DNA of 64,000 nt from an uncultured virus (IMG/VR IMGVR_UViG_3300031746_002572) (IMGVR_UViG_3300031746_002572), one strand, 5' to 3'. Counted from the first letter of the stretch, positions 10,440-45,041 are shown. Program-made: numbers and translations. The notes: generated from the sequence alone by a model not told the origin.

Positions 10440-10483
10440 GAAAGCCTGCCTAATTACGGAGCGGGCGCAGGAGAATTAAAGAA

Positions 10484-10947: not shown

Positions 10948-10986
10948 ATTGCGAAGCGCAACTTCTTACTTTGTCGGACGTTGTAT
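10916..10986 (+). repeat. attC-like site
   Basis: Identical to 6736-6802 from AACCAAC to GTT. Confidence 0.85.
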
Positions 10987-11028
10987 GAAAGCCGGTTGCG
11001 AAAACCATTTATAGGAGCGGCGCAAATT

Positions 11029-11493
11029 ATGACAGAAAAGGAAATGGAAGAAAAAAATAAAAAGCACCTCGAAAGAGTAAAATTATATGAAAACACAATT
11101 ATTAATAATAAAAACAGGTTGTTTCTGTGTCCGTTTTGTGGAGACTTCCCAATTTTAGAAAGAAACAAACATTCGGGGAGTTTTATAAATATAGAATATC
11201 ATGCGAGATGTGATTGTATGCAAATTTCAACACCTTATTACAGAAATATTGAACTTGTTATAAAAAAATGGAATACCCGCGCCGCAATTGCGGAATCGCC
11301 CGCCATCATACAACAACCGCTTTGTGCTTCGGAGGCCAAATTGCCAAGTTTTGATGAGGTATTTAAAATGGTCAAGCAACATCTTTGTGCTGTTCGTGAT
11401 TCCGGAACTCTTTGGAAAAATATTGGCGATGATGAAATTATAAAAAACACTTATTTAGCTATTGAAAAACTTGGCAACTTCACAAAGTGGTAA
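11029..11493 (+). CDS. Lar-like Zn-ribbon protein with attC-encoded C-terminal extension
   Basis: LCPFCG...ARCDC...KKWNTR; tail ESPAIIQQPLCAS shared with 5771-6100. Confidence 0.6.
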   Translation: MTEKEMEEKNKKHLERVKLYENTIINNKNRLFLCPFCGDFPILERNKHSGSFINIEYHARCDCMQISTPYYRNIELVIKKWNTRAAIAESPAIIQQPLCASEAKLPSFDEVFKMVKQHLCAVRDSGTLWKNIGDDEIIKNTYLAIEKLGNFTKW

Positions 11494-11502
11494 ACGTTAG
11501 CC
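11308..11502 (+). repeat. attC-like site with long coding loop
   Basis: ATACAAC...ACCGCTTTGTG..TTGCCAAGTTTT / AAAACTTGGCAA..CACAAAGTGGT-AAAC-GTTAGCC. Confidence 0.8.
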
Positions 11503-11548
11503 AAAATAAACCGCGCTGAGTTTATAGTTCGGCGGCAATGGAGGAACA

Positions 11549-11821
11549 ATGGATTTGCATGTTTTATTTGGATCGGCCCTCTGCTACACTAAGGAATTTA
11601 CTATAAACGGTGTGGCCGCATCAGACAAGGATTTCGGCGAGAAATATGATCGATCACCCGATGATGCAGAACTGTATGGGTGCGGGGACATGCGGTTTAC
11701 TCGCAAGCCATCTCTCGCCGAAATTCTTTTGAAGTATGCTATAACCGAGGGTGAGTATTCAACCGTTTGTGATAAGTTGGAAGAGGGCCTTTCTTTTGGA
11801 TCGTGCGGATGGTGTGTTTAA
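11549..11821 (+). CDS. Cassette hypothetical protein (C-terminal CGWC)
   Basis: SD GGAGG. Confidence 0.7.
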   Translation: MDLHVLFGSALCYTKEFTINGVAASDKDFGEKYDRSPDDAELYGCGDMRFTRKPSLAEILLKYAITEGEYSTVCDKLEEGLSFGSCGWCV

Positions 11822-11865
11822 TTGTCCGCCGCCGAAAGAAAGATAATCGATGCGCGGTTTACATC

Positions 11866-11926
11866 GGCTAACAGCCAAAGCCGCGCAATGTCAAGGCCCA
11901 CTGCGGGCGTTTGGCGAACGTTGGGC
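11866..11926 (+). repeat. attC-like site
   Basis: GGCTAAC-A-GCCAAAGCC / GGC-G-TTTGGC-GAAC-GTTGGGC. Confidence 0.85.
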
Positions 11927-11984
11927 ACAATTCGCCCGCAATACATGGCCCCATCGTGGGGCCTAAGAATTAAGGAGAGGACAA

Positions 11985-12428
11985 TTGATTAAAAATTACA
12001 CAAGCGGTGTTCCAGCACAAAAAAGCGTTATGAAGATAGAAGAACTTCTGGCAATTCATGGAGCGCAAAGCGTAGTGAAGCAATACGAAAACCAGAAGTT
12101 AATTGCAGTTTCCTTTTTTATGCAGATCACCGGGAAGCTCATCCCATTTCGTCTACCCGCTAGAATATCTCAAGTGGAAAAAGTTTTAAAAGCAGAGGTC
12201 AAAAAACCACACAAGGGGACTCTTGACAGAATCACCGAACAATCGGAAAGAACAGCGTGGAAAATAATTTTGGATTGGGTAGAAGCGCAAATGGCGCTGG
12301 TTGAATTGCAACAGGCGGAAATGGCAGAGATATTCATGCCATATATGTGGAGTGAAAAATTAGGTCAATCTTTTTATCAAATTGCCGTTGAAAAAGGTTT
12401 TAATCTTTTGGAGGCACCAAAGAAATGA
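11985..12428 (+). CDS. Conserved phage-type hypothetical protein
   Basis: TTG start after AAGGAGAGG; IKNYTS...RTAWKIILDWVEAQMA. Confidence 0.7.
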   Translation: MIKNYTSGVPAQKSVMKIEELLAIHGAQSVVKQYENQKLIAVSFFMQITGKLIPFRLPARISQVEKVLKAEVKKPHKGTLDRITEQSERTAWKIILDWVEAQMALVELQQAEMAEIFMPYMWSEKLGQSFYQIAVEKGFNLLEAPKK

Positions 12429-12477
12429 AACATACGCATAGTTGTGGTAAAACCGCGCAAAGAAAGGAGTAACAACA

Positions 12478-12699
12478 TTGAAAAATAAATTTTGGTACAT
12501 AAAAGAAAGACATAATCCGCAATTCAAACAACCGTATTACGTTGCCCTTGGAAACATATCGAAGAAACAAGCAAAAGCGTATGAAAGTTCAATATACGGG
12601 GATAATACCGTTTTTAGCTTCGACTCGGAAGAAAGGTACAGAGAAGAAATTAAGAGATTAAAAAATGCGCGGTTCAACGTACAACAGGCCGCTTTATGA
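12478..12699 (+). CDS. Cassette hypothetical protein
   Basis: TTG start after AAGGAG; flanked by AACCGCGCA / TGCGCGGTT. Confidence 0.65.
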   Translation: MKNKFWYIKERHNPQFKQPYYVALGNISKKQAKAYESSIYGDNTVFSFDSEERYREEIKRLKNARFNVQQAAL

Positions 12700-12839
12700 A
12701 ACTATCGCATCACAAAGCGATGAACGCATGCGGTACGGGGCAAAAGCCCCAAATTGCCGAAGCGTCAACTTCCGCATAGCGAAAACGGTTGAAAGCCTGC
12801 CTAATTACGGAGCGGGCGCAAAGAAAGGAAAATTAAAGA

Positions 12840-13304
12840 ATGGTAACAAATAAAAATTCTCATATTTGGTGCAGGCTTTCTGGCCCAGGCCGTGGGGACT
12901 GTGAACATTTTATCGGATTGCCGGACAAAATAGATGATAGTGCAACCGATGAATATGGTATTCCATTTGGTTGGTGTGAATGGTGCTGGTTAGTTTTTAA
13001 ATTTGAAGAATTAAATAAAGTTTACAAAAATGCAAAGGCTGTCGTACAACATTGGAATGAATTTGGGCCAGAGTATGGACATGAAGAGCATGTTGATAGC
13101 TTGGAAAAGTCAATTAAAAAATACCATGAAGCAATTGGAACTAAAGATGCGCCCGCCAATCTTAGAACGGCAGGCCATCAACCAACAGAGCAAAGTAAGA
13201 CGCAGCCAGAAATTTGCCCTCATTATTTTGAGGCGACCGATGGGGTACATGCTTGCGTGGTAGGTCAATGTGCGTGTCATGGCAACCTATCTGGCGTGCG
13301 GTGA
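12840..13304 (+). CDS. Cassette hypothetical protein containing DAPANLRTAGHQPTEQSK
   Basis: Same leader/trailer shell as 6377, 7705, 10433 and 57725. Confidence 0.7.
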   Translation: MVTNKNSHIWCRLSGPGRGDCEHFIGLPDKIDDSATDEYGIPFGWCEWCWLVFKFEELNKVYKNAKAVVQHWNEFGPEYGHEEHVDSLEKSIKKYHEAIGTKDAPANLRTAGHQPTEQSKTQPEICPHYFEATDGVHACVVGQCACHGNLSGVR

Positions 13305-13323
13305 ACATAAGGAGGCGGCGCAA

Positions 13324-13674
13324 ATGACAAAAACAAAACATCATTTTGGAAGATTAGAATTTAAAAGCAACAACCTAAAGTTACTTGATAAATTAAAACT
13401 ATTTTTTTACCTTTTGTTTAATAAAAAAATTGTGTTTGTAAATATAGAATTGATAGTAGAAAGCGGCATGATAGAAAATGAACTTGCTTTACTTTGTGAA
13501 GTTGCTTCGCCGGGAATGTTTCCAACCACTGTTCTTACATCAAATATTCTTTGCAATTGGCCTCGTGAACGTATTGTAAGATTTGCAAAGCATCTTCTTG
13601 GTGATAAGTGCCAGGAATGCCGCGCTTGTGAAAACAAGGAAGCGATTGCCACAACCGAGGAAAGGAAAACATGA
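13324..13674 (+). CDS. Hypothetical protein
   Basis: ATG after AAGGAGG. Confidence 0.6.
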   Translation: MTKTKHHFGRLEFKSNNLKLLDKLKLFFYLLFNKKIVFVNIELIVESGMIENELALLCEVASPGMFPTTVLTSNILCNWPRERIVRFAKHLLGDKCQECRACENKEAIATTEERKT

Positions 13675-13856
13675 AAATCTCTATTGCCGAACACATACAA
13701 GAAATTGATAGATTAGTAAAGCGATATGGAGTTGAGTTTGATTATTATTCGTGGAACGAAATAAAAACAGCACTACAAACGCGATGTCCAAATTTAATAG
13801 AAGATAAAAACAAAATATGGAGATGTAAAATTATAATTGAAGATGCGCAAAAATAA
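13671..13856 (+). CDS. Hypothetical protein
   Basis: ATGA overlap; SD AAGGA. Confidence 0.6.
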   Translation: MKISIAEHIQEIDRLVKRYGVEFDYYSWNEIKTALQTRCPNLIEDKNKIWRCKIIIEDAQK

Positions 13857-13876
13857 TGAAGTTTGGCATAGATGTT

Positions 13877-13997
13877 TAATAACCGTATGGCGAAGCAAAT
13901 TTGGCAACCAACGGAAATAGGAATTGTACCAGCAATGAACCTATTACTTATAGCCGTTGTCTGGTGTTGCCAAACTTCGCCATACTCTATGTTAATT
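13877..13997 (+). repeat. attC-like site
   Basis: TAATAAC-C-GTATGGCGAAG..TTTGGCAAC / GTTGCCAAA-CTTCGCCATAC-TCTAT-GTT. Confidence 0.8.
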
Positions 13998-14028
13998 GGT
14001 GGAAACACGGCACGAAGGAGGCCGCACA

Positions 14029-14199
14029 ATGAAAAAAACAAAAGACGATATTGAACTTTCGATTCGAGCAGCAAAACTTGGGAAAAAAGTTCTTACCTTG
14101 GTTGCTATTACAGATAAGGGTCTTGCCTTGCTTATATTGAAGGAAATTGCTGAAATATTAAAAGAAACTGAAAAATGGCTAAAATCATGCGCAGCTTAA
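14029..14199 (+). CDS. Last cassette hypothetical protein
   Basis: SD AAGGAGG; followed by trailer and a truncated attC-like site to ~14289. Confidence 0.6.
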   Translation: MKKTKDDIELSIRAAKLGKKVLTLVAITDKGLALLILKEIAEILKETEKWLKSCAA

Positions 14200-14325
14200 T
14201 TAGATTTTTGGCGTACCGTGCATCCATCAACAAACAAAGTAAGGTGCAGGGCTAAATTGCCGAAGCGTAAACTTCGGCATAGGTTGAATGTTATTAATAG
14301 GTAAAAGAATAATTCAACAGATATT

Positions 14326-15336: not shown

Positions 15337-16616
15337 TAATTCAATTACAACGTGCTATTATTTCCGGTATGATTTATGATAATAATTTTTTTCTTGAAGC
15401 CAAGAAAATAATAAAATCTGATTATTTTTCTTCTGACGCACATAAATGGATTATAAAACAAATAATTCTTTTTGATAAAATAACCCCAGCTATACTTATA
15501 AATGAATTTAAAGATAAATGCAACGCTATGAATGAGGATTTAAAACAGATAGTAGGGGAAGAATTAAAATTAATACTTAAAAAGAATGATTTAGTTGAAG
15601 CTAATTACAGTATTAATATTTTAAAAGATTTTATAGAACGTCAGGAATTGGAAACTCATTTATATGATGCCGTACAGATATTGAAAAGTAAGAATGATGT
15701 CAGAGCGGCTAAAAACAAATTAAAAGAAATTTATAGTAATGATGATGATAATGAATTTATTAAAACCATAAATATTATTGATGATTTTGAAGATAGAATA
15801 AATATAAGAGAAGAAAAGGTTAGAAATAATGAGGTTATTTTTTACCCAACCGGTATAAAACTATTGGATCAGCAATTAGGAGGCCCGCAGGTTGGCGAAT
15901 TTTGGTCGTGGTATGCGGACACAAATATGGGCAAATCAGCACTAGCTATGAATATGGGTAAGATTTGTATGTTGATGTTGGTTCCGGTATGGCATATTGT
16001 AGTTGAAGATATGCTTGAAATGACGATGCAACGGTATGATACGTCTTTGTCTGGTCTTGAATATTTAAAACTTACAAAATGCGATTATACTAAAGAAGAA
16101 AAAAATAAGTTGTTTAATATATTTGAATTATTAAAAAAGAAAAGAGATAAATATTTGTATGTGACTAAAATCGAAGAAGGTTGTACGATGGCAGAAATAG
16201 AAGAAGAGTATAAAAATCTTCAAAATAAATATGGTTTTAAACCAAATGTAATTATTCTTGATAGTCCCTATAATATGGAACCTACCTTTAGAAGAGAAAA
16301 TTATCGTTTGAATTGTTCGCAAATTTATAAAGAAATACGTAAGTTTACTAGATATAATAAAGTAGCTTTTAATGCTTATGATCAGAGTAAACAATCGGCA
16401 AGAGGTATAGTTGCTGATTTAGAAGATGCGAGTTCTGAAAGTTATGATAAAGCTAGAATTGTTGATGGATTTATTACAATTAATCAAACAAGGATACAAA
16501 AAAAAGAGGGTATTATGGAATTATTTGTGGCTAAGATGAAGGGGAGAGAAAAGTATATGTCTTTTTTTATAAGACCTTGTTTAAATATAATGAGATTTGA
16601 TTCGATTGAAAAATAA
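15333..16616 (+). CDS. dnaB: Replicative DNA helicase (DnaB/gp41-like)
   Basis: PTGIKLLDQQLGG, ADTNMGKS, IILD, VAKMKGR. Confidence 0.85.
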   Translation: MIIQLQRAIISGMIYDNNFFLEAKKIIKSDYFSSDAHKWIIKQIILFDKITPAILINEFKDKCNAMNEDLKQIVGEELKLILKKNDLVEANYSINILKDFIERQELETHLYDAVQILKSKNDVRAAKNKLKEIYSNDDDNEFIKTINIIDDFEDRINIREEKVRNNEVIFYPTGIKLLDQQLGGPQVGEFWSWYADTNMGKSALAMNMGKICMLMLVPVWHIVVEDMLEMTMQRYDTSLSGLEYLKLTKCDYTKEEKNKLFNIFELLKKKRDKYLYVTKIEEGCTMAEIEEEYKNLQNKYGFKPNVIILDSPYNMEPTFRRENYRLNCSQIYKEIRKFTRYNKVAFNAYDQSKQSARGIVADLEDASSESYDKARIVDGFITINQTRIQKKEGIMELFVAKMKGREKYMSFFIRPCLNIMRFDSIEK

Positions 16617-16618
16617 AT

Positions 16619-16650
16619 TAGTAATAAGGAAAAGAATAATTGTATTTATA
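16619..16650 (+). promoter_or_regulatory. Promoter-like motif, copy 3
   Basis: TAGTAATAAG-N11-TTGTATTTATA, then AAGGAG and ATG 16667. Confidence 0.7.
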
Positions 16651-24014: not shown

Positions 24015-24587
24015 ATGGCATATTTCAATTGTGATAAATGTAATCTAGGTGAATTTTCCCGTAGCGTTAGCGGGGAAGGAGATATTAATTCAGGTATATT
24101 TGTATGTGGTTTTTGCCCTGGCGAAGATGAAGAGCGTATAGGTAGCCCATTTGTAGGTAGAAGCGGAAAATTGTTGGGTTTGATTTTTGAATTATTGGAT
24201 ATAAATAGAAAACAAATATGGATTACTAATATAATTAAATGCAAAACTATTAATAATAGAAAACCAAGATTAGAAGAAATTGTAAGTTGTTCTGGATATA
24301 TAGAAAAAGAAATAGCAATGGGAAAACCTAAAGTAGTGATCGCTTTGGGTTCGGTGCCCATAAAATATTTTACTGATATTAACTCTGTTCAAGAAGCCAG
24401 AGAAAAGAAAGCGATAAAAATGATTGAAAGAGATTTCTGGGTTATACCGACTTTTCATCCAAGTTACTATTTAAGACAAGGTGTTTCTTCAGAAGTTAAA
24501 GAAGGATTAGTAAAAAAAATTCCAGAATATATCCATGATTTTGAATTATCTTTAGGATTATATAAAAAAATTGGTAATAAGATATGA
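24015..24587 (+). CDS. Uracil-DNA glycosylase, family 4
   Basis: CDKC, PGEDEE..G.PFVGRSGKLL, TNIIKC, TFHPSY. Confidence 0.9.
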   Translation: MAYFNCDKCNLGEFSRSVSGEGDINSGIFVCGFCPGEDEERIGSPFVGRSGKLLGLIFELLDINRKQIWITNIIKCKTINNRKPRLEEIVSCSGYIEKEIAMGKPKVVIALGSVPIKYFTDINSVQEAREKKAIKMIERDFWVIPTFHPSYYLRQGVSSEVKEGLVKKIPEYIHDFELSLGLYKKIGNKI

Positions 24588-24603
24588 AAAAACTGTATTT
24601 ATA
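24572..24603 (+). promoter_or_regulatory. Promoter-like motif, copy 4, pointing into array B
   Basis: TGGTAATAAG-N11-CTGTATTTATA, 15 bp before the first attC. Confidence 0.65.
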
Positions 24604-24618: not shown

Positions 24619-24733
24619 ACCTAACGATAGAACTGTGCGGAAATGAGGAGATTGTATGAAGACTGCATACGGTGATTGCAAACTAAACCTAACTTGGCCT
24701 CCAAGTTTTTTCCGTTCCAGCGACGGGTTGGGC
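24619..24733 (-). repeat. attC site B1
   Basis: - strand: GCCCAAC-CCGTC-GCTGGAACGGAA...TTCCGCACAGT-TCTATC-GTTAGGT. Confidence 0.9.
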
Positions 24734-24745
24734 AACTTCTTAAAT

Positions 24746-25135
24746 CTATACATAACCTTTTATTATTGGATGCGATGGTTTATTGTATGGAAATTTACAT
24801 TTAGGGCATATCATAAATTTATTATCAAAACCAAGCATAATTTCAATATTTTTATTCAAACATTGGGTACAGTAATATTCTCCTGTTTTTTTATTAATCA
24901 TGGTTTTTGTTTCTCTATTAAATCTGTATCTACGTTTTTTAAAATATGGATATTTAAATGATAAGTATGCAGGCAAAAATAACAGCAATAGAATTAATGT
25001 TGTTGTGGTTAATAATAATGTTAATATGGCGTAAAATTTCTTGGGAAAAGCATGATAAATTGGATTTAATAAGGAAAATACGCGATCCAGAATATAATCC
25101 AGAATACGATAAGCAATATGATTTAGAAAATCCAT
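24746..25135 (-). CDS. Cassette membrane protein with C-terminal Zn finger (paralog of 25830-26252)
   Basis: TM segment, CTQC...CPKC; SD AAGGA. Confidence 0.7.
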   Translation of the reverse strand: MDFLNHIAYRILDYILDRVFSLLNPIYHAFPKKFYAILTLLLTTTTLILLLLFLPAYLSFKYPYFKKRRYRFNRETKTMINKKTGEYYCTQCLNKNIEIMLGFDNKFMICPKCKFPYNKPSHPIIKGYV

Positions 25136-25214
25136 TGGTTGATTATTCCTTTATTTCTAAAATATTTTGGTTAATTATTATTATTATTATTTTTATTTTT
25201 TTGCATATTTAGTT

Positions 25215-25329
25215 GCTCAACGATAGAGCTGTGCGGAAATGAGGAGATTGTATGAAGACTGCATACGGTGATTGCAATTACGCCTTACGAACCTTGCGAG
25301 TAAATTCCGTGTTCAGCGACGGGTTAGAA
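25215..25329 (-). repeat. attC site B2 (variant arm)
   Basis: Same ends and length; ~25278-25313 differs from the other copies. Confidence 0.88.
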
Positions 25330-25355
25330 TGCGTCATAATTATTGAAAGGATTTT

Positions 25356-25538
25356 ATGAATTATAATATTAAATATCATAAATTATTGTCTTTGATAAAT
25401 AATAAAAATAAATTAAATAAATTTTCAACTTATGAATTAATTGTTTTAATTAAAGCAATTTCAAAATGTATGAAAAAAGATAATAAAATAAACCGAAGTA
25501 ATTTATTTAGAATTATTGATAAATTTATTACCAAATAA
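25356..25538 (+). CDS. Small cassette protein on the + strand
   Basis: SD GAAAGGA; 3' end overlaps the convergent 25503-25670. Confidence 0.5.
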   Translation: MNYNIKYHKLLSLINNKNKLNKFSTYELIVLIKAISKCMKKDNKINRSNLFRIIDKFITK

Positions 25539-25670
25539 TATGACTAATTGTTTTGCCAATTCTTCTATAGTTTTTCTTAATTCAAAATTACAAAATTTAC
25601 ATTTTGATGATTTATCTTTATTTAATAGTTTTACAATATTATTGCAATTAGGACATTTAATTTTTGTCAT
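25503..25670 (-). CDS. Cassette Zn-ribbon protein
   Basis: MTKIKCPNC...CKFC; SD AAGAAAGG. Confidence 0.65.
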   Translation of the reverse strand: MTKIKCPNCNNIVKLLNKDKSSKCKFCNFELRKTIEELAKQLVILFGNKFINNSK

Positions 25671-25709
25671 GTATTTTCCTTTCTTAAATGGTTTTAATTT
25701 AATTACACA

Positions 25710-25824
25710 TTCTAACGATAAAGCTGTGCGGAAATGAGGTAACTGCATGAAGACTACATACGGGGATTGCAAACTAAACCTAACTTGGCCGCCAAGTTTT
25801 TTCCGTTCCAGCGACGGGTTGGGC
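25710..25824 (-). repeat. attC site B3
   Basis: + strand TTCTAAC...GTTGGGC, 115 bp. Confidence 0.9.
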
Positions 25825-25829
25825 ATTCT

Positions 25830-26252
25830 TTATTTTCTTGTATATAATTTTATTATTGGATTTATTGGTTTATTATATTTTTCGTTGCATTTAGGACAAA
25901 TCATAAATTCATCGTTAGAACCAAGTATATATTCTTTATTGTCGTTTAGTAAGCAGGAATAACAATGGTATTCATTTGTTTTCTTATTAATCATAGATTT
26001 GGTTTCTCTATTAAACATATATCTTCTTTTTTTAAAATACGGAGTATCGTAAAAATATGAATAAAGCAAAAGAAATAATAGAATCAATGCTATTAGTAGG
26101 AATAGGCACATTAATACAGTTATTAATATCTTTGGGGCATGATGATATATTGCATGAAACATATAAGAAATCTTATGAAAAGTTTGTTTTATTATCATTG
26201 ACAGAATACCTATTAATAGTCCCACCAACCCTGATATTACTTGGTTTTTCAT
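25830..26252 (-). CDS. Cassette membrane protein with C-terminal Zn finger
   Basis: Shares PYFKKRRY.FNRETK.MINKKT...FMICPKC with 24746-25135; stop 5 bp from attC. Confidence 0.75.
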   Translation of the reverse strand: MKNQVISGLVGLLIGILSMIIKQTFHKISYMFHAIYHHAPKILITVLMCLFLLIALILLFLLLYSYFYDTPYFKKRRYMFNRETKSMINKKTNEYHCYSCLLNDNKEYILGSNDEFMICPKCNEKYNKPINPIIKLYTRK

Positions 26253-26274
26253 TATGGATTTGTTCTTCTAAAAT

Positions 26275-26389
26275 GCTCAACGATAGAGCTGTGCGGAAAT
26301 GAGGTGACTGCATGAAGGTTACATACGGGGATTGCAAACTAAACCTAACTTGGCCGCCAAGTTTTTTCCGTACCAGCGAAGGGTTATAC
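26275..26389 (-). repeat. attC site B4
   Basis: + strand GCTCAAC...GTTATAC. Confidence 0.9.
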
Positions 26390-26394
26390 ACCTC

Positions 26395-26790
26395 TTATTT
26401 TAATTTCCATTGTTTTTCTAATTTAATTAATTGTTTTAATAATATTGTTCGTTTTATATCATCTTGGTTTTGTTCAGGGTTACTTACTACAAATATTATT
26501 CTGAAGTATATTTCTCTTTCTTGTGGTGTCATAATATTGGATAATTCAGTCCATGCAGATGAATTTAAGATTTCATTAAATGTTTTAATATTCTCAATTT
26601 GTTTTCTAATTTTGTTAATTAATTTGATCTTATAATTTAATAATAAATTTTGTTTATCGAATTTATGTTTGATAAGGAGCAATATTAATGAAAGAACGAA
26701 AATGGATACAAGAATTAGAAGAATCTGAAACAATGACAGAATTGAAGCAAGTTCTTTCAGAAATGGAATCGTATTTAAGAAAGTCATCAT
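26395..26790 (-). CDS. Cassette membrane-anchored hypothetical protein
   Basis: N-terminal TM; stop 5 bp from attC. Confidence 0.7.
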   Translation of the reverse strand: MMTFLNTIPFLKELASILSLFQILLILVSIFVLSLILLLIKHKFDKQNLLLNYKIKLINKIRKQIENIKTFNEILNSSAWTELSNIMTPQEREIYFRIIFVVSNPEQNQDDIKRTILLKQLIKLEKQWKLK

Positions 26791-26864
26791 TGAATTTCGA
26801 TACAGATATTCAATTATGGATTATAATTGGTTTATTGGTTTTTATTTGTATTAAAATTATATAA
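26688..26864 (+). CDS. Antisense 58-aa protein with C-terminal TM (below ORF-track cutoff)
   Basis: AAGGAG SD; MKERKWIQELEE...LWIIIGLLVFICIKII; stop 3 bp before attC B5. Confidence 0.5.
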   Translation: MKERKWIQELEESETMTELKQVLSEMESYLRKSSLNFDTDIQLWIIIGLLVFICIKII

Positions 26865-26867
26865 GGT

Positions 26868-26982
26868 GTATAACGATAGAGCTGTGCGGAAATGAGGTAA
26901 CTGCATGAAGGTTACATACGGGGATTGTAAACTAAACCTAACTTGGCCGCCAAGTTTTTTCCGTACCAGCGATGGGTTGGGT
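26868..26982 (-). repeat. attC site B5
   Basis: + strand GTATAAC...GTTGGGT. Confidence 0.9.
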
Positions 26983-26986
26983 GGTG

Positions 26987-27397
26987 TTATAATTTTTCAA
27001 GAATATTTTGGAATTTTTGTGTTTTGTCTTGTCCTAAATATGGCTTTAAATATTCCAATTGTTTGCTTATCATTTCTTTATGTTTGTCTGTTATTTGTTC
27101 TGTATTTTTTAAAATTGATAATATTGTAAAAGGAGTACATAATAATGCCGTGGTTATTGCTTTTATTTTTTCTTGTTCGCCCTGAATATCTTTGGCTTGC
27201 TTCTTTAATTGTATCATTGAAAAGTATTTATTGGTTAATCCAACATTCAGAAACAAAAGAAGGAATACCGCTACAAATAGAAATAAAGATGCGATTGCTA
27301 AAATGGATGAAGGATAGGAATTATTTTGGTATGCAAAATAAAATGAAATTATGGTGCATAAAAATAAAAATATAGTTATGAAATATTGTTTTTTCAT
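26987..27397 (-). CDS. Cassette protein with two TM helices
   Basis: Fills cassette end to end; ATG 8 bp after GTTGAGT. Confidence 0.75.
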   Translation of the reverse strand: MKKQYFITIFLFLCTIISFYFAYQNNSYPSSILAIASLFLFVAVFLLLFLNVGLTNKYFSMIQLKKQAKDIQGEQEKIKAITTALLCTPFTILSILKNTEQITDKHKEMISKQLEYLKPYLGQDKTQKFQNILEKL

Positions 27398-27405
27398 ATT
27401 AAACC

Positions 27406-27520
27406 ACTCAACGATAAAGCTGTGCGGAAATGAGGTGACTGCATGAAGGTTACATACGGTGATTGTAAACTAAACCTAACTTGGCCGCCAAGTTTTTTCC
27501 GTACCAGCGACGGGTTGGGC
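27406..27520 (-). repeat. attC site B6
   Basis: + strand ACTCAAC...GTTGGGC. Confidence 0.9.
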
Positions 27521-27670
27521 AACTTTTTTGTAATAAAGGATGAAAATAATATGGCATTGAGAAATAGTTTTTCTGATATATTTATGAAAAATTCAACTAT
27601 TCATTTCTTTCAGATTATTACTCCTATTTTATTGTTATTTAATATTTTGATAATGGTATTAGTTATTCTT

Positions 27671-27934
27671 TTAAAAGAAAAAGAATTGTATGATTATAAA
27701 TAATAGAGTTAAAAAAGAAATTATTAATATTATTAACGTCATCCATTTAATTGATGCTTGTATTTTAAAATTAATGTTTTCATTATTAATTTTTCTTTCA
27801 TGTAATATTTGTTTTGCAGTAATATGTCTATTATCGTGCAGAACCCATTCTGCCATAATAACTATTAATTGTTCATCCGTATAGGAATTATATGTTTTCT
27901 TTAATTCAGTTATTACTTTATTATCAATGTGCAT
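27671..27934 (-). CDS. Cassette protein with C-terminal TM
   Basis: Starts shortly after GTTGAGC of B7. Confidence 0.65.
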   Translation of the reverse strand: MHIDNKVITELKKTYNSYTDEQLIVIMAEWVLHDNRHITAKQILHERKINNENINFKIQASIKWMTLIILIISFLTLLFIIIQFFFF

Positions 27935-27952
27935 TTGATTTTAAATTGAGTT

Positions 27953-28066
27953 GCTCAACGATAGAGCTGTGCGGAAATGAGGTGACTGCATGAAGGTTAC
28001 ATAAGGTGATAGGAACTAAACCTAACTTGGCCGCCAAGTTTTTTCCGTACCAGTGATGGGTTGGGT
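27953..28066 (-). repeat. attC site B7
   Basis: + strand GCTCAAC...GTTGGGT, 114 bp. Confidence 0.88.
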
Positions 28067-28222
28067 TGCTCTTAATTTTTTAAATAAGGAGTTCATTATG
28101 AAAAAGAAAATAAAAAAAAGTGTCCTTGATAAAAAGATTCGTAATGCACGTAAATTATCTGTATTGTCAAAATTATTGCATGTTAAATATTAATTTACGA
28201 GTATAAATTATAGGGCCAACCT

Positions 28223-29110
28223 ATGAAAAATTTAATTATTGTTGATTTTAGTAATTTTGCATTTAGAACGTTTTTTACTCACGCAGAGTTAAAAAATTCT
28301 ATTGGTATTGGCACAGGGATGATTTATGGATTTATACAATCTCTTGTTTATCTTATTAGTAAATATAAGTGGAGTCCGAATCAATTTTTATTTGCATTAG
28401 ATCATAAACCTAAACATAAATTTGAAATATATCCTGAATATAAGGCAAATAGACAGAAACATGAATTTGAACAGGGTATGACCGTTCCATTACAGATAAA
28501 ATTGACAAAATTGATAGTTTCTTATTTAGGGTTAAATTTTGTAGATTCTATAGATCAGGAATGTGATGATGTTATTTATACGGTTTCAAATAAGTGCAAG
28601 AATTTAGATGTTGCTATTATTTCTAATGACCATGATATGAATCAATGTTTAAAAAACAATGTGAAAATAATGACGCTTCATAAAATTGGTGAAGATATAT
28701 TTACTGAAAGAAAGTTTATAGATAAATATGGAATTGTGCCAGAAGATTATTATAAGGTTCAAATGCTTTGTGGGTGTGAAACGGATAATGTCAAGGGTAT
28801 GCGAGGGATAGGGGAGAAAAGCGCGGTAGATATAGTTAAAATGAATAACTGGTTAAATATATTACAGGGTAAAAAAGATTTAAAGTTTTCTTCTAAAAGA
28901 ACACAGACAATGTTTTATAAGAATTTAACACAATGGAATTTAATAAGAGAAGAGAAATTAGTTAGATTAAACAACGTAGAAATAAGATTTATTAAAAATA
29001 GTTTTAATGAAACTAAATTAAAAGAATGGTTTATTAAATTAGAATTTGAAAAATATTTAACTAATTTCGATAAAGTTATTGAAATGTTTGGGAAAGGACG
29101 GCTTAAATGA
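28223..29110 (+). CDS. 5'-3' exonuclease / flap endonuclease (PolA N-terminal type)
   Basis: IVDFSNFAFR, YPEYKANR, ECDDVI, SNDHD, TDNVKGMRGIGEKSA. Confidence 0.92.
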   Translation: MKNLIIVDFSNFAFRTFFTHAELKNSIGIGTGMIYGFIQSLVYLISKYKWSPNQFLFALDHKPKHKFEIYPEYKANRQKHEFEQGMTVPLQIKLTKLIVSYLGLNFVDSIDQECDDVIYTVSNKCKNLDVAIISNDHDMNQCLKNNVKIMTLHKIGEDIFTERKFIDKYGIVPEDYYKVQMLCGCETDNVKGMRGIGEKSAVDIVKMNNWLNILQGKKDLKFSSKRTQTMFYKNLTQWNLIREEKLVRLNNVEIRFIKNSFNETKLKEWFIKLEFEKYLTNFDKVIEMFGKGRLK

Positions 29111-35638: not shown

Positions 35639-37507
35639 ATGTTTATAATCAATAGTCTTAAAATTCATAATTTTATAAAGTTTAAAGACGTAGAAATTAA
35701 TATGCGTAATCAGGGTTTAGTGTGGTTAAAGGGAGAGAACTTTGATGAACCAGAGAAGGGGAAAACAGGAGCCGGAAAAAGTCTTTTTGGTGATGCAATA
35801 CATTGGTTATTATCTGGCAATACTACAAGACCTGTGTTGGCGACAAGAATAGTAGGAAATAATGATAAATCGTGTTTTGTCGAAGCAGAAATAGAGATTC
35901 AGAATGAAAAGATTAAAATAATACGTTATCGCAATGATAAAAAATATGGTAGCGGTGTGCGTATTATTTCTCATGGCAATGATGTAAGTCATCGTAATTT
36001 ATCAGAATCGCAGGATCGTATAAATAAAATTATAGGTTGTTCTTTTGATTTATTCAGACTTTCTTGTTTTTATAACACGTCTAGTAAATATCATTTTTCA
36101 TATATGAGTTCTGTTGAACGTGCGAAGATTTTAGATGAAATTATAGGCACGGATGAAGCTAATGTAACCGATAGAATTAAAAAAGTGAATATTTTATTAA
36201 AACAAAAAAATGAATTGTTAGTTTCTATTCAAAACTCACTATATAATAATGAAAATAAGATATTAAAATTACGTGAAGTGATTATAGATAATGAAAAATT
36301 GCAAGATAATAAGATTTATGAAGAACAAATAGAAAAAATAAAGTCGGAAATAACAATATTATCTATTTCAAAATTATCTGTTTTACTAGACACATTGTTG
36401 AAATTGAAAAAAAAATCTAATGTTCTTGAAGAGAAACAAAAAGAATTGGATTTAATTACCAATACCGTAAATAAATTGGCTAATCGTATAGAACTAGTTA
36501 ATTATAAATTATCAGATTATGATAAAAAAATTAGTAATGTTAGTTTAAATGTCAAAGCGAATATAGGGGAACTATGTGATGGTTGTGGAAATATAATCAC
36601 TGAAAATTCATTAGAGTGTCTAAAATCTAAAAGGCGCGATGAAATATTAAAAATTAATTTAGAAAAAGCAAGTGTTGAAAAAGAGTTGATAATTTTAAAA
36701 GATAATTTAGATATACAGGAGAATAAGTTAAAAAAGTTTAGTGAACTGGGTGTTGATGAAAATATAGGAATTGATATAAATAACGTAGAAAATGAGATAA
36801 GGAAGGAAAAAGAAAAAGAAAGACTATTGGAAAATAAAAAGAAAGACCTTGTTGAATATGAATTAAAATATAGGTCTTATAAAAGTGATATAGAAAAAAT
36901 TATTGAAAAAAATAAAAATGAAATTACAATAGTAAAAAAAGACATTAATTTTTTAAATATAAAACAGGCGCGTATAGAAATAGAAATAGAAAAATTAAAA
37001 ACTATTGGTGATTTTTATGGGCCATCGGGTTATAGACCATTAGTAATGAGTCATTATTCTCCTGTTTTATCCGATGCCGCTAATTTTTATCTTTCTGAAT
37101 TTATAGGGACAAAGGAAAAAATAATAATAGATTCAAAGACACAATTAGCAAGTGGGGAAATAAGAGATAAAGTTGATGTGAATATTTATGATAATGGACA
37201 ATTGAAATATTTTCCAGAAGAATTTAGTGAAGGCGAGAGATGTTCGATTGATTTAGCACTAAATTTTGGTATTATGCGTATAGCTGCAATGAGAGCCGCA
37301 AAGGATTTTAATTTTATGTGGTTTGATGAAATCACTAATGGATTATCCGAAAGTCTTATTAATAGATTAATAACTATTGTTCGTAATAAGATAATGAGAG
37401 AAAATATGACGGTTATAATGACCAGTCATCATCCTCTTAACCCGGATTTATTTGATTCTGTATGGACAGCAGTAAAGGAAAATGGTATATGCAGAATAAA
37501 ACAATAA
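35639..37507 (+). CDS. sbcC: SbcC/Rad50 SMC ATPase
   Basis: GKTGAGKS, CDGC hook, FSEGE signature, FDE, TSH. Confidence 0.92.
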   Translation: MFIINSLKIHNFIKFKDVEINMRNQGLVWLKGENFDEPEKGKTGAGKSLFGDAIHWLLSGNTTRPVLATRIVGNNDKSCFVEAEIEIQNEKIKIIRYRNDKKYGSGVRIISHGNDVSHRNLSESQDRINKIIGCSFDLFRLSCFYNTSSKYHFSYMSSVERAKILDEIIGTDEANVTDRIKKVNILLKQKNELLVSIQNSLYNNENKILKLREVIIDNEKLQDNKIYEEQIEKIKSEITILSISKLSVLLDTLLKLKKKSNVLEEKQKELDLITNTVNKLANRIELVNYKLSDYDKKISNVSLNVKANIGELCDGCGNIITENSLECLKSKRRDEILKINLEKASVEKELIILKDNLDIQENKLKKFSELGVDENIGIDINNVENEIRKEKEKERLLENKKKDLVEYELKYRSYKSDIEKIIEKNKNEITIVKKDINFLNIKQARIEIEIEKLKTIGDFYGPSGYRPLVMSHYSPVLSDAANFYLSEFIGTKEKIIIDSKTQLASGEIRDKVDVNIYDNGQLKYFPEEFSEGERCSIDLALNFGIMRIAAMRAAKDFNFMWFDEITNGLSESLINRLITIVRNKIMRENMTVIMTSHHPLNPDLFDSVWTAVKENGICRIKQ

Positions 37508-38325
37508 ATGTAATTATACCTCTTTGTAATATAGGCGAAAAGGATTTTGAGGATAGAATTTATTCATTGAATTATTTAATCAATGATTTTTATTGTAAAC
37601 AACAGGGAATAGATATTTGTGTTGTTTTTGTAGAGCAAATTATTGATGAGAGTTATAAAAAATATCAAGATTGTTTGTATTATGGTAGATTAAAATATAA
37701 ATATTATACGGTAAAATACGGTATTAATTTTAATAAGTCATGGTTATATAATATCGGGGTACACAATTCAGAGGGAGATGATATTGTGCTTGCCGAAGCT
37801 GATACGATGAAACTTGATAATTCTTATTTTGTAAATTTTATGAAATTTGCGGAATTAACGAAATTAGACTGGTCTTTTATGTGGGAACATATTTGTTATT
37901 TAAGTTTGTATGATAAAGAAAGATTGATTTTAGGAAATAAACCAATGACACAATTTTATAATAATCATCAGAAAGTTGGGCATAAAGGAATTGAAGGTGG
38001 ATTTGTATATTTTAAGAAAAGTTTTTATTTTAAAATCGGGGGTATGAATGAATGGATAGAAAGATTTGGAGGTATGGATAATGAAATCGTGGCGAGAGCA
38101 GAATATATGACTCAAACATATCCTATTTATCCTAGTGTGATTTATCACTTATATCATAACCTTTCTTCAATGAATGCAATAGATCAGTATAGAATTAAAA
38201 ATTCAAAAATATTACAATATACGCGAGAACACACGAAAAAAATTATAGATTTTTTATGTTGTTATAAAATAGGAAATATGGTCTATCCTTTATGCGTGAA
38301 AGAGAAATATGCGGAAGAAATATAA
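37489..38325 (+). CDS. GT-A glycosyltransferase (GT2/GT7-like)
   Basis: FNKSWLYNIG, EAD, IGGMNE...GGMD, HLYH. Confidence 0.75.
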   Translation: MQNKTINVIIPLCNIGEKDFEDRIYSLNYLINDFYCKQQGIDICVVFVEQIIDESYKKYQDCLYYGRLKYKYYTVKYGINFNKSWLYNIGVHNSEGDDIVLAEADTMKLDNSYFVNFMKFAELTKLDWSFMWEHICYLSLYDKERLILGNKPMTQFYNNHQKVGHKGIEGGFVYFKKSFYFKIGGMNEWIERFGGMDNEIVARAEYMTQTYPIYPSVIYHLYHNLSSMNAIDQYRIKNSKILQYTREHTKKIIDFLCCYKIGNMVYPLCVKEKYAEEI

Positions 38326-38503
38326 AAATAAAAATATGGTTAGAGATGTAAAGATGTCTAAAAATCCAAATTGGAAAGGTGGAAAAATTAAAAATATAAA
38401 GGGTTATATTCTAATAAGAATGCCAAAACATCCTTGCGCTGTTCAAGGTTATGTTCGAGAAGATATATTATTAATGGAAAAACGGATTAAAAATCTTAAA
38501 TAA
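38309..38503 (+). pseudogene. Truncated HNH homing endonuclease remnant
   Basis: NPNWKGG...GYILI..PKHP...GYVRE..L.ME; stops before the HNH core. Confidence 0.6.
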
Positions 38504-38513
38504 AAGGCAAATA

Positions 38514-39356
38514 ATGAGTAATAGAATAACAATTATAGGTGAGATTGGTATAAATCATAATCATAATATGGAAATTATAAAAAAGTTGATAGATTTATGC
38601 GTAGAATTAAGAATTTCAATAGTTAAATTTCAAAAACGTACCGTAGATTTATGTTATTCTAAAGAGTTTTTAGATAGTCCAAGAGAGTCTCAATTTGGAA
38701 AAACTGTTAGAGATCAAAAGAATGGATTAGAATTATCACAAAATGATTATGATGAAATAAATAAATATTGTGATGAAAAAAATATTTATTGGATGGCTAG
38801 TGCATGGGATATTCCAAGTCTAGTTTTTTTAAGACAATATAGGTCGTTATTCAATAAAGTTGCTTCTGCGATAATTACGAATTTACCGTTAATAGAAGAA
38901 ATAGCGAAAGAAAAAAAATATACATATATTTCTACGGGGATGAGCACTTTACAAGAAATACATAGAGTTGTAGATATTTTTAAAAAATATAGATGTGCTT
39001 TTGAATTAATGGTGTGTACGAGTACATATCCTATGAAAGATGAACATGCTCGTTTAGGCCGTATTATATCTCTACGCCGAGAGTTTAATTGTAACGTAGG
39101 TTATAGTGGCCATGAAACAGGGTTACAAATATCATTGGCTGCTGTGGTATTAGGGGCATCAAGTATAGAAAGACATATTACGCTTGACAGAACAATGGAA
39201 GGATCGGATCATGCGGCTTCTTTAGAACCAAATGGTTTAAGAAGATTAGTAAGAGATATACATATAATTAAGAATGCTATTGGAAATGGCGTAATAGAAC
39301 CTATCTTAGAAGAAATACCTATAATGGAAAAATTAAGATATTGGGAGAATAATTAA
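38514..39356 (+). CDS. neuB: N-acetylneuraminate (nonulosonate) synthase, no SAF domain
   Basis: EIGINHN, VKFQKR, ISTGMS, CTSTYP, GYSGHE, IERHITLD, GSDH. Confidence 0.93.
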   Translation: MSNRITIIGEIGINHNHNMEIIKKLIDLCVELRISIVKFQKRTVDLCYSKEFLDSPRESQFGKTVRDQKNGLELSQNDYDEINKYCDEKNIYWMASAWDIPSLVFLRQYRSLFNKVASAIITNLPLIEEIAKEKKYTYISTGMSTLQEIHRVVDIFKKYRCAFELMVCTSTYPMKDEHARLGRIISLRREFNCNVGYSGHETGLQISLAAVVLGASSIERHITLDRTMEGSDHAASLEPNGLRRLVRDIHIIKNAIGNGVIEPILEEIPIMEKLRYWENN

Positions 39357-39562
39357 TGGAAAATAAATTTATAGATTTTATAGAAAAAAATTATATCTTT
39401 GGTTCTTTAAGAGAATGTATTATAAATTTTGTTTATAATCATCTAGAGAGAGAAGATTTACCGCGTGATAATGGAGAATGCGCATTTCAAATGATTAAAG
39501 GTATGATAAAATATTTAGAACTTAAAAATATAAAAAAAAGTAAGATATTGGCAGATGAATAA
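39356..39562 (+). CDS. Hypothetical protein
   Basis: Coupled between neuB and neuA. Confidence 0.55.
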   Translation: MENKFIDFIEKNYIFGSLRECIINFVYNHLEREDLPRDNGECAFQMIKGMIKYLELKNIKKSKILADE

Positions 39563-40238
39563 AAAAATTATTGTTATTATTGGAGCACGTAGTAAAAGTA
39601 AAAGTATAAAAGATAAGAATTTACTTCTTATAAATAATATACCTTTATTGGCATGGCCTATTGTTATAGCAAAACAGTGTAAAAATATTGATAAAATATA
39701 TTTATCTACTGATAGCGTTAAATATGGCAAAATAGGCGAATGTTTTGGGGCTGAATTTATATTAAGACCTCCTGGATTAGCGCAAGATAATAGTGTGGAT
39801 TATGATTGGATCAGAGATTTGATGATAACACCCGCAATGATATGGGATGATGATATGTTGGTTTTGTTGCGGCCTACTAGTCCTTTGAGAAATCCAAAAA
39901 TATTAGAAGACGTGATAAAAAAATTTGATGATAAAAACTATGATTCTTTACGTACCATAGAAGAACTATTAGACCCGATAGAAAAGTTATATGAATTTCA
40001 AACAGATATGAAGACTATACAAAGATTTAGAATAGGTGATAAATATCCGGTACATGATATGCCGCGTCAGGAATGTAAAAAAATATATAGACCTAATGGA
40101 TATGCAGATATTTTAAAAGTTGAGACAATAAGAAAATATGGGAATTTATTTGGTAATAAAGTACAAGGTTATATTACGCCTAAAATATTAGAAATAGATG
40201 AATATGATGATTATGAATTAGTTAAAGGAATTAGATAG
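39555..40238 (+). CDS. neuA: CMP-nonulosonate synthetase
   Basis: ARSKSKSIKDKN, STDS, RPTSPLR, EIDEYDD. Confidence 0.9.
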   Translation: MNKKIIVIIGARSKSKSIKDKNLLLINNIPLLAWPIVIAKQCKNIDKIYLSTDSVKYGKIGECFGAEFILRPPGLAQDNSVDYDWIRDLMITPAMIWDDDMLVLLRPTSPLRNPKILEDVIKKFDDKNYDSLRTIEELLDPIEKLYEFQTDMKTIQRFRIGDKYPVHDMPRQECKKIYRPNGYADILKVETIRKYGNLFGNKVQGYITPKILEIDEYDDYELVKGIR

Positions 40239-40263
40239 TATAAAATGGACAAGGAGATAAAAA

Positions 40264-41226
40264 ATGGTTGAAAGAATATCATATTTTAATGGAAAATATG
40301 TTCCTGTGTCTAAAGTATATATTTCTCAATATAGTTTATGGGCAATGCAGGGCGTGTGCGTTTTTGAAATGTTAAGGAGTTTTAATAAGATTCATTTTAA
40401 ATTAGGTGATCATTTGGATAGACTTTATAAAGGTTTAAAAGTATATAGAATAGAACCAAAAGAAAGTATAGTGGAAATGGCTCGAATCTGTGAAAAAGTT
40501 ACAGATATAAACAGAGATTTTTTTAAAAAAGATGATGAGTTCAGACTAAAAATAAATATCGGTGGTGGAAATTTATCTATATATCCTTCTCCTCATACTC
40601 CAATTGTTATCGTAGACGTGTTCCCTTTGCGATGGACTATAAAAGGGATGGGTAAATTATTTGATGAAGGTGTAAACGCAATTATACCATCACACCGTAC
40701 TATTGATCACGACTTAATAGATCAACGAGTTAAAAATTGCAATAGATTACATTTTTATCTAGCTAATCAGGATATTAGTGGATATAGTGGTGAAAATAAT
40801 TGGGCTTTGTTGTTAGATAGTAGGGGTTTTATAGCTGAAGGTACTGGTGATAATTTTTTCATTGTTAAAAATAATAAAATTATTACGCCTAAATGTATGA
40901 ATATATTAGGAGGCATTAGTAGAGATTATATAAGATCAATGGTTAAAAATAATTTGAAGTATGAATTTATTGAAACAGATATAAATTTTTATGATGTTTG
41001 TAACGCCGATGAAGCCTTTTATAGCGCAACACCATTTTGTATTATGCCTTGTGTGTCTATTCAAGGCGTTAAAATAGGGAATGGTAAAGTAGGCCCTTGT
41101 GTTAAATACTTATTGGCTTTATGGTCTAAAATAGTAGGGGTAGATATAGTTGAACAGATTAAAAAATGGGATATAAATAATAAAGATATTAATGGCATTA
41201 CTCCTTATATGATAAGGAAAAATTAA
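40264..41226 (+). CDS. PLP aminotransferase class IV (IlvE/Dat-like)
   Basis: GVCVFE, HLDRL, EGTGDNFF, LGGISR, ADEAF. Confidence 0.88.
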   Translation: MVERISYFNGKYVPVSKVYISQYSLWAMQGVCVFEMLRSFNKIHFKLGDHLDRLYKGLKVYRIEPKESIVEMARICEKVTDINRDFFKKDDEFRLKINIGGGNLSIYPSPHTPIVIVDVFPLRWTIKGMGKLFDEGVNAIIPSHRTIDHDLIDQRVKNCNRLHFYLANQDISGYSGENNWALLLDSRGFIAEGTGDNFFIVKNNKIITPKCMNILGGISRDYIRSMVKNNLKYEFIETDINFYDVCNADEAFYSATPFCIMPCVSIQGVKIGNGKVGPCVKYLLALWSKIVGVDIVEQIKKWDINNKDINGITPYMIRKN

Positions 41227-41253
41227 TTGATTTAATAGATAGAAAGGATAAAG

Positions 41254-45039: not shown

Positions 45040-45041
45040 AA

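Follow-up and report, generated by a model that had tools for sequence, protein, structure and literature searches.

Seven attC-type sites and six small gene cassettes in the replication gene block of a likely phage contig

Integrons are regarded as bacterial devices, and the question raised by the sediment contig IMGVR_UViG_3300031746_002572, from an uncultured virus, is whether seven similar repeats lying among its replication genes are integron recombination sites (attC sites) and, if so, which enzyme moves the cassettes between them. The window analysed here is a 64-kb stretch of this 116,007-bp contig, and all positions are counted from the first letter of the window. The array is probably a CALIN, that is, a set of attC-type sites without a nearby integrase, in which six cassettes lie between a gene for a uracil-DNA glycosylase (UDG) and a gene for a 5'-3' exonuclease (FEN), and on which integron-type recombination would act in trans.

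Seven copies of a single 114-115-nt repeat occupy positions 24619-28066 (including the 4-nt flanks of the boxes), exactly where the original prediction, made by a model from the sequence, had placed seven repeats of about 115 bp. A covariance model of these copies, run unfiltered on both strands of the window, returned seven matches and no more (107-144 bits, E = 2e-31 to 6e-43), all on the minus strand: r1 (24619-24733, 133.5 bits), r2 (25215-25329, 107.3 bits), r3 (25710-25824, 137 bits), r4 (26275-26389, 139.5 bits), r5 (26868-26982, 141 bits), r6 (27406-27520, 143.7 bits) and r7 (27953-28066, 134.8 bits), r7 being the first and r1 the last in minus-strand order. The next-best match in the window scored 12.1 bits (E = 0.22). 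The AAC...GTT cores extend over 24623-24729, 25219-25325, 25714-25820, 26279-26385, 26872-26978, 27410-27516 and 27957-28062, measure 107 nt in six copies and 106 nt in the last, and belong to repeats whose starts are 596, 495, 565, 593, 538 and 547 nt apart. Over 108 aligned columns, r3-r7 differ from one another at 3-12, and r1 differs from them at 9-15, its nearest copy being r3 (nine differences). The second copy, r2, shows 20-29 differences from all others, 17-20 of these in the plus-strand 3' half; it keeps the outer parts of the repeat and deviates in the centre. Rfam (at gathering thresholds) and a tRNA scan gave no match in the window.

The six cassettes between the repeats are 388-489 bp long, and their ends carry the most specific evidence of how they were joined. 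Beyond GTT/AAC, the 3' flank of each repeat and the 5' flank of the next match at 7-8 of 10 positions in all six cassettes, compared with just 1-5 of 10 for the two flanks of one and the same repeat. The stem is extended contiguously past GTT/AAC by 6-9 bp per cassette, to a sum of 45 when G.T pairs are allowed. This sum is reached by two of the 720 partner permutations (mean 21.3), namely the observed order and the one in which the first and sixth cassettes, c1 and c6, which share ends, are swapped; Watson-Crick pairs alone sum to 18, a value reached by 24 of 720. When the sites were rebuilt as in an excised circular cassette and folded computationally, cognate ends gave -15.4 to -23.7 kcal/mol and non-cognate ends -9.5 to -18.6 kcal/mol, the cognate site being the most stable in every row of the comparison and tied solely where c1 meets c6. 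Integron cassettes are excised and inserted by a crossover within GTT. Because the ends pair cassette by cassette and flush with GTT/AAC, the crossover can be placed there, and the pairing reads as the footprint of a site-specific crossover at a fixed point, G/TT (the slash marks the cut), in a folded single strand. At the margins of the array, the outer R' flank of r1 is phage DNA, and no partner end was found in the window for the 5' flank of r1 (GTACCTAAC) or, at up to two mismatches and apart from r7 itself, for the outer R'' flank of r7 (GAGCAACCCAAC). A generic scan of the window for complementary GTT/AAC ends gave 146 matches as against 109-165 in shuffled sequences, and is uninformative unless the repeats are taken into account.

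The anatomy of the repeats agrees with that of attC sites, whose known sizes range from 57 to 141 nt. On the minus strand each copy reads AAC, 5 nt, L'' (GCTG[G]TACGG..., with one extra base), tip, L', 6 nt and GTT; the plus strand correspondingly reads AAC, 6 nt, L, an intervening part, L with one extra base, 5 nt and GTT. Compared with the consensus RYYYAAC/GTTRRRY, 10 of the 14 R boxes are exact and the other four deviate once each (52 of 56 R/Y positions agree). The AAC and GTT are unchanged in all seven copies, and all seven have minus-strand spacers of 5 nt (CCGTC-type) and 6 nt (TCTATC-type), as expected of attC sites. The L''/L' inverted repeat forms a stem of 12 pairs, with 95% of cells paired across copies, and R' and R'' pair within cassettes; these features, like the size of 114-115 nt, are those by which attC sites are recognized.

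All six rebuilt sites folded into a 9-12-bp outer stem, an unpaired 6x5-nt bubble, a 12-bp inner stem and a branched tip, with a bulge, of one base in most, on the 3' arm of the inner stem. In the array the bulge lies on the expected arm: r4-r7 have a clean single C, r1 and r3 have this bulge next to a mismatch, and r2 has two bulged bases; r6 shows the complete series of R stem, 6x5 spacer and L stem with one bulge. The bulged C follows 4 bp of stem, whereas the corresponding base in the aadA7 site is a G after 3 bp (PMC9892861). A G.T pair on the plus strand corresponds to an A.C mismatch on the minus strand in four of the six outer stems, and the plus strand folds better than the minus strand in five of the six rebuilt sites; for these reasons the plus strand is predicted to be the one that folds ("bottom"), which makes the minus strand the "top" strand. 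The description first given of this locus, a homogeneous attC-type array with the layout R''-5-L''...L'-6-R' on the minus strand and with cassette-specific complementary ends, is confirmed, and the three pairs of ends that it quoted are all present.

The sites are also better conserved than the genes between them. Only 9 of 108 columns separate r1 from r3, while the cassettes c1 and c3, which carry related genes, are only 68% identical in DNA (pS, the divergence at synonymous sites, is 0.62). Because the synonymous sites of this pair are near saturation and the recombination sites differ so little, the sites are under selection or are kept alike by conversion. As a separate observation, the c1/c3 pair looks like a gene and its site that were duplicated together and then diverged.

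The genes of the cassettes are read on the minus strand, opposite to the neighbouring genes. Cassette c1 (24730-25218) contains a gene of 129 aa (24746-25135) whose product has a membrane anchor and a four-cysteine zinc ribbon, and c3 (25821-26278) contains its paralogue of 140 aa (25830-26252). In c5 (26979-27409), a 136-aa gene (27397-26987 in its own direction, also in the public gene call), encoding two membrane segments and a helical tail, fills the cassette, starting 12 nt past the upstream site and stopping 8 nt ahead of its own site. The longest reading of c4 (26386-26871) is an open reading frame (ORF) of 131 aa (26395-26790) with an N-terminal membrane segment; c6 (27517-27956) has an 87-aa gene (27671-27934, in both the public gene call and the ORF list) with a C-terminal membrane segment, and c2 (25326-25713) a candidate gene of 55 aa (25503-25670, from the ORF list) with a zinc-ribbon-like CPNC...CKFC motif. 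In c1, c3, c4 and c5, 8-16 nt separate the stop codon from the core of the site (9 nt in both c3 and c4). Since these minus-strand genes stop just short of the site cores, we favour the canonical integron order of a gene ahead of its own site for the cassettes. Additional plus-strand ORFs may exist in c2 (60 aa, 25356-25538, an alternative from the ORF list), in c4 (58 aa, 26688-26864, preceded by an AAGGAG ribosome-binding site and present in the public gene call, which omits the 131-aa form) and in c6.

The reading of c1 and c3 on the minus strand is supported by comparison of their predicted products. The minus-strand proteins share 52% of their residues in an alignment of 124 (E = 6e-32), whereas the plus-strand ORFs are unalike (E = 0.29), and the ratio of nonsynonymous to synonymous divergence (pN/pS) is 0.35 over the C-terminal 67 codons. 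A c1+c3 profile found 20 proteins at E <= 0.001 among 1.84 billion representatives (the P0011-P0029 family), including a full-length relative of 142 aa (P0011, E = 2e-33); most of the distant relatives are 134-160 aa long and aligned across most of their length. Members of the family thus defined, which is unnamed, are about 140 aa in length and combine a membrane segment with a KY.FD..TG...KKT motif and a zinc ribbon, the four cysteines of which are invariant in 11 sequences; the public gene call shortens its two members in the window to 51 and 62 aa. No cassette protein reaches the Pfam or PHROGs threshold, none has a paralogue elsewhere in the window, and their look-alikes in the Atlas fall into unnamed clusters (score 0.88-0.90). 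The cassette proteins are plausibly infection accessories.

In the mechanism that we propose, the cassette unit would be a minus-strand gene followed by its own site. The plus strand, when single-stranded, would fold into the 9-12-bp R stem, the unpaired 6x5-nt spacer, the L stem with its flipped-out base and the branched tip, and a tyrosine recombinase of the integron-integrase kind would cut the folded site at G/TT. This cut would release cassettes as circles, which could re-enter at another site. Direct support for the reading comes from the sites, their fold geometry, the cassette-specific ends, the gene orientation and the better conservation of sites than of genes; the enzyme, its present-day activity and the roles of the cassette proteins are inferred.

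If the sites count as attC sites, seven of them with no integrase within 24 kb to the left or 36 kb to the right make a CALIN. The array is not a complete integron, as no intI and no attI-like sequence stands beside it, and it departs from a sedentary chromosomal integron: its sites are homogeneous, but it lies in a phage-type gene block, has no intI, and no bacterial counterpart was found. Recombinases were sought with Pfam in the 76 ORFs of at least 85 aa, and with PHROGs, NCBIfam and a looser Pfam search in the unannotated ORFs. Because the window shows no candidate, the enzyme would have to act in trans and come either from the host or from the remaining 52 kb of the contig. A 342-aa ORF (P0003) upstream of the attI-like junction of a second array near the right end of the window (array C, below) was considered as a recombinase and rejected, since it gave a faint glycosyltransferase hint and no recombinase signal.

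Several observations weigh against interpreting the array as a CALIN. No PF00589 or other recombinase domain was found in the scanned ORFs of the window, neither end of the array resembles the attI-like junction present elsewhere in the window, and the searches turned up neither a related phage nor a variant arrangement, so that movement of the cassettes was not observed. The L-box sequences, with their bulged C after 4 bp, are not canonical, and the R stems are 9-12 bp long as compared with the usual 7-bp box. A Vibrionales-type model built from 15 real sites (extracted from the prophage Va_90-11-286_p16, MK672802) misses all seven copies, its best match in the window being elsewhere (12.6 bits, E = 0.73), although a model from a single taxon says little on attC membership at large. 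The sites in the array do not fold significantly better than shuffled sequences (z = +0.7 to -1.4), and internal covariation is slight, 17 of the 26 pairs being invariant. The public gene call has plus-strand ORFs in c1, c3 and c4, and codon-usage scores do not separate the strands (-0.27 to +0.27 for cassette ORFs as against 0.42 for the backbone). Finally, the Logan contigs of the likely source run break inside every repeat and so give no cassette order. A crude box-and-stem scanner, with 10 matches as against 1-10 in 20 shuffles, does not discriminate; its top matches are r4-r7.

Some of these departures would be explained if the strand exchange at GTT in folded DNA were run by an enzyme other than an integron integrase, either Xer-like or a novel phage recombinase encoded in the other part of the contig, in which case the sites would be attC-like only. 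Neither the L boxes nor the bulged C after 4 bp nor the 9-12-bp R stems follow the aadA7 and Vibrio references, the Vibrio-type model misses the sites, and the site family was not found in any scanned bacterial genome. Moreover, long pairing from end to end recurs in the two other arrays of the window, a hint of a single enzyme that has preferences of its own. However, the R boxes match the integron consensus at 52 of 56 positions, the spacer lengths and the side of the bulge agree with integron sites, and no candidate enzyme of any kind is present in the window. Integron integrases are generally known to tolerate highly varied sites, and examples from phages are given by Qi, Rajabal, Ghaly, Tetu and Gillings (2023, PMC9892861). 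We regard this alternative as doubtful, if the best of those to be weighed against the CALIN interpretation.

The original prediction had further proposed that the cassettes were captured from the integron of the host, and that this could identify the host. Such a capture would have brought the array as a block from a sedentary chromosomal integron, and a bacterium with the same site family would then be the host. Near-identical sites are typical of sedentary chromosomal integrons, and those of the present array are near-identical in the same way. There is also a precedent in a Vibrio prophage that carries 16 host-type sites (PMC9892861). However, a pattern of the 23 specified bases that are invariant in the seven copies gave one match in a collection of one genome per species for 185,579 species (a Paenibacillus contig), one in the JGI metagenome contigs and none in IMG/VR. 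The Paenibacillus and metagenome matches share only 15 nt with the repeat and were set aside as chance, as were nine IMG/VR loci from an exact 16-mer scan that match over 16-17 nt only; the pattern scan needs an exact 14-mer, and diverged relatives would be missed by it. Neither the GenBank phages nor the PLSDB plasmids gave a blastn match to the array. A search for phage relatives through DnaE yielded no usable locus, and one through FEN no pattern match in IMG/VR; the best FEN relative among 5.8 billion clusters is 27% identical. The guanine-plus-cytosine (GC) content of the cassettes is 17-26%, below the 29% of the backbone (the repeats have 45-48%), neither end of the array carries a remnant of attI or intI, and two viral contigs of IMG/VR, both without repeat arrays, encode weak relatives of the c1/c3 family (37% identity to P0011 over 41 residues). 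Since the pattern scans of bacterial genomes, metagenomes and IMG/VR gave chance matches only, capture from a host integron is unsupported and must be called unlikely, and the proposal that the site family identifies the host is likewise unsupported.

These data leave room for another idea on the origin of the cassettes, namely that the phage lineage keeps an integron-like gene bank of its own, in which cassettes are made and exchanged in the phage pool and the recombinase is encoded on the remaining part of the contig. It is suggested by the absence of the site family from the scanned bacterial genomes and by cassettes that are AT-richer than the phage, and also by the phage-type cargo of small membrane and zinc-ribbon proteins, by the c1/c3 duplication and by the two arrays that stand at an identical attI-like junction. 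We put it forward tentatively, as less likely than not.

A different kind of explanation is that the repeats are not recombination sites, but regulatory intergenic elements, each a terminator plus a ribosome-binding site, spread by homologous recombination. Phages of the T4 type have promoter/stem-loop cassettes, that is, repeats with a promoter and a stem-loop that are exchanged by homology within the repeat. In the present array, six of the seven repeats contain a 7-bp G+C hairpin with T runs, GAGG followed by ATG occurs on the plus strand of every repeat, and a promoter-like motif ends 20 nt before r1. Terminator-like sites were frequent (14 found and 1.7 expected), 12 of the 14 coming from the repeat hairpins. 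Homologous exchange, however, would not yield cassette-specific complementary ends flush with GTT/AAC; r2 has neither the hairpin nor the T run, yet keeps its R and L boxes; and promoter-like sites are not enriched (25 found as against 29.4 expected), which, with the cassette-specific ends, separates the array from T4-type shuffling. The two roles are in any case compatible, attC sites having been described as weak terminators (PMC9892861). As an account that replaces recombination, this alternative is quite improbable.

The hairpin itself, AACTTGG...CCAAGTT with T-rich runs on both strands, lies at 24691-24707 in r1 and at the equivalent place in r3-r7, and has the form of a bidirectional terminator in these six sites. 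If such hairpins are active, plus-strand transcripts from the upstream promoter-like motif would end within r1. The GAGG is followed after 6-7 nt by the ATG (for example at 27428-27445), and frames from this ATG stay open for 35-107 codons in six of the seven copies, beyond expectation for such AT-rich DNA. These frames are probably spurious, because their codon scores are low (-0.27 to +0.10) and they are antisense to the real genes.

That the array is an assembly artefact, or a chimera of phage DNA and a bacterial cassette array, is scarcely credible: assembly is difficult across repeats of about 107 nt and the Logan contigs do break in each of them, but contigs of 11,493 nt and 29,334 nt cross the outer junctions, the cassettes have a depth close to that of the flanks, and a run from a second study holds identical pieces of DnaE and c1. 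The shorter contig runs from the DnaE/UDG side to 40 nt inside r1, and the longer from 39 nt before the end of r7 on through FEN. The depth is 12.4-14.7 for the six cassette pieces and 15.1 and 14.5 for the flanks, and the pieces from the other study are 151 nt long with a depth of 2; the small share of the sequence present in that run is not taken as a sign of habitat. The Logan contigs are a separate assembly of the same probable sample, and the support from them is not fully independent. With the junctions near 24600 and 28200 bridged at even depth, the chimerism that had been named as a risk for this locus is not seen there. Joints and loose ends of the contigs were also considered as signs of cassette rearrangement and rejected, as they have short sides or are single contigs.

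Integrons have been considered rare in phages, a view that needs to be qualified, as phage genomes with clustered attC sites were published in 2023 (PMC9892861). In that paper, a screen of 10,705 phage genomes gave 17 CALINs, with 2-4 predicted sites each in Table S1, and five attC sites of virulent phages were recombined by IntI1; it also reports prophages that had taken up parts of host arrays. In the collection of papers searched, we found no further one on attC arrays of phages, and the papers on large phages listed there do not mention integrons or attC. The present array resembles these phage CALINs in having attC-type sites between small cassettes, no integrase nearby and R boxes of the GTTRRRY type, and in a cargo of no known function, with anti-restriction genes (methylases) in a neighbouring array. 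It differs from them in having seven sites instead of 2-4, five of which differ from one another at 3-12 of 108 columns, in its R stems of 9-12 bp, and in having two more arrays beside it on the contig, both of which start at an identical attI-like junction. IntegronFinder or HattCI had identified the published sites, five of which were shown to recombine, whereas those described here are predicted from sequence and fold. What is new relative to the published phage CALINs is therefore a larger number of sites, their greater uniformity, longer outer stems, the location in a replication module, and the presence of the array as one of three.

Two reference systems allow a closer comparison. In the Vibrio prophage MK672802, the sites are likewise similar to one another and about 115-125 nt long, the cassettes have one or a few genes upstream of the sites on the top strand, and the extra bases are on the 5' arm of the top strand. 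However, that array lies beside intIA and has host-type sites, while here no intI, attI or bacterial counterpart was found, and the unpaired spacer, 5x6 nt in the present sites, measures about 3x3 nt in the Vibrio consensus. The bottom strand of aadA7, a site from a class 1 integron (Table S3 of PMC9892861), reads RYYYAAC, 6 nt, L', an intervening part, L'' with an extra base, 5 nt and GTTRRRY, and the plus strand of the present sites has the same order and spacer lengths. The aadA7 site, of about 60 nt, ends in a simple hairpin, in contrast to 115 nt and a branched tip that includes the terminator-like hairpin, and its L-box sequences are unrelated to those found here.

A uniform seven-site array inside a replication module, one of three on its contig and with no bacterial counterpart found, suggests that accessory genes may be stored and exchanged in large environmental phages through the folded-DNA mechanism of integrons. 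With the sites defined to the base, which enzyme moves phage cassettes becomes a testable question; if it is the integron integrase of the host, phages would be a two-way route for cassette traffic.

Two other arrays of a different kind are present in the window. Array A (about 5730-14290, plus strand) comprises about 15 cassettes and has a GC content of 41%, compared with 29% for the backbone. Its sites are heterogeneous and end in ...RAC/GTTRRRY; 12 of the 24 plus-strand ACGTTR words of the window are in this array, ten of them at junctions. Among its products are an N6/N4 DNA methylase and two Lar-like proteins of restriction alleviation, which point to counter-defence. Array C runs on the minus strand from 57729 downward to about 56430; at least two cassettes follow its attI-like junction, and the second of these encodes a 180-aa methyltransferase-like protein (phrog_799, E = 7e-19). 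The Logan contig of 29 kb ends near array C. As had been predicted, the site family of r1-r7 is distinct from the sites of both arrays, in which the model of the seven copies finds no site.

Arrays A and C begin at an identical 72-nt stretch, which is found at 5662-5733 (plus strand) and 57726-57797 (minus strand), ends in ...ACATATCACTAG/TTG, and is followed by different first cassettes (GTTGTGGGAAAG... at one place and GTTGGTTGAAAG... at the other). Because the same 72 nt precede different first cassettes, the stretch appears to behave like an attI site present in two copies in inverted orientation. At 57.7 kb, the stretch forms the 3' end of a ribbon-helix-helix-like gene of 73 aa (57729-57950, minus strand) behind a promoter-like motif, whereas at 5.7 kb only the last ~20 codons of the gene are present. 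Cassettes with different genes share ends in these arrays (6377-6429/6693-6742, 7691/8133, 10423/10873, 12774/13137 and 57729/57378). The shared ends are complementary over about 45 nt (GTTGGTTGAAAGCCTGCC...GGGCGCA with TGCGCCC...GGCAGGCCATCAACCAAC), which would give an outer stem far longer than that of known attC sites; the shared 5' end bears a ribosome-binding site, and the shared 3' end encodes a common C-terminal tail (...DAPANIGTAGHQPTEQSKAQG).

The surroundings of r1-r7 had been described as a phage replication module. A replication and recombination block is confirmed, with genes for DnaE, a DUF4031 protein and UDG (24015-24587, plus strand; PF03167, E = 9e-27) to the left and for FEN (28223-29110, plus strand; PF02739, E = 6e-31), a UvsX/RecA-like protein and SbcCD-like proteins to the right; around the array, the window also encodes a DnaB-like helicase, a helicase loader, a primase, RuvC, methylases and a NeuB-type sugar pathway. 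As to "phage", no virion gene, tRNA or ribosomal gene was found in the 64-kb window, and from its phage-type replication genes the contig is likely to be a phage. The window has a GC content of 28-29% and a one-strand gene order over 55 kb.

A promoter-like motif, AAATAAATTnGTAATAAG...TGTATTTATA, is found at 1420-1470, 4927-4977, 16600-16650 and 24553-24603, on the minus strand near 57955-57985, and as a weaker copy near 28125-28160; at two genes it precedes a ribosome-binding site and ATG by 10-15 nt. Because one copy ends 20 nt before r1, the array looks as if it had been inserted between a promoter and its gene; the other end of the array is 160 nt ahead of FEN. Farther to the right, the plus strand carries a sugar-modification block at 37462-52952, with a NeuB-family synthase, a cytidylyltransferase, an aminotransferase, a radical-SAM/SPASM protein, several glycosyltransferases and an epimerase, which suggests the synthesis of a nonulosonic-acid-type glycan by the phage.

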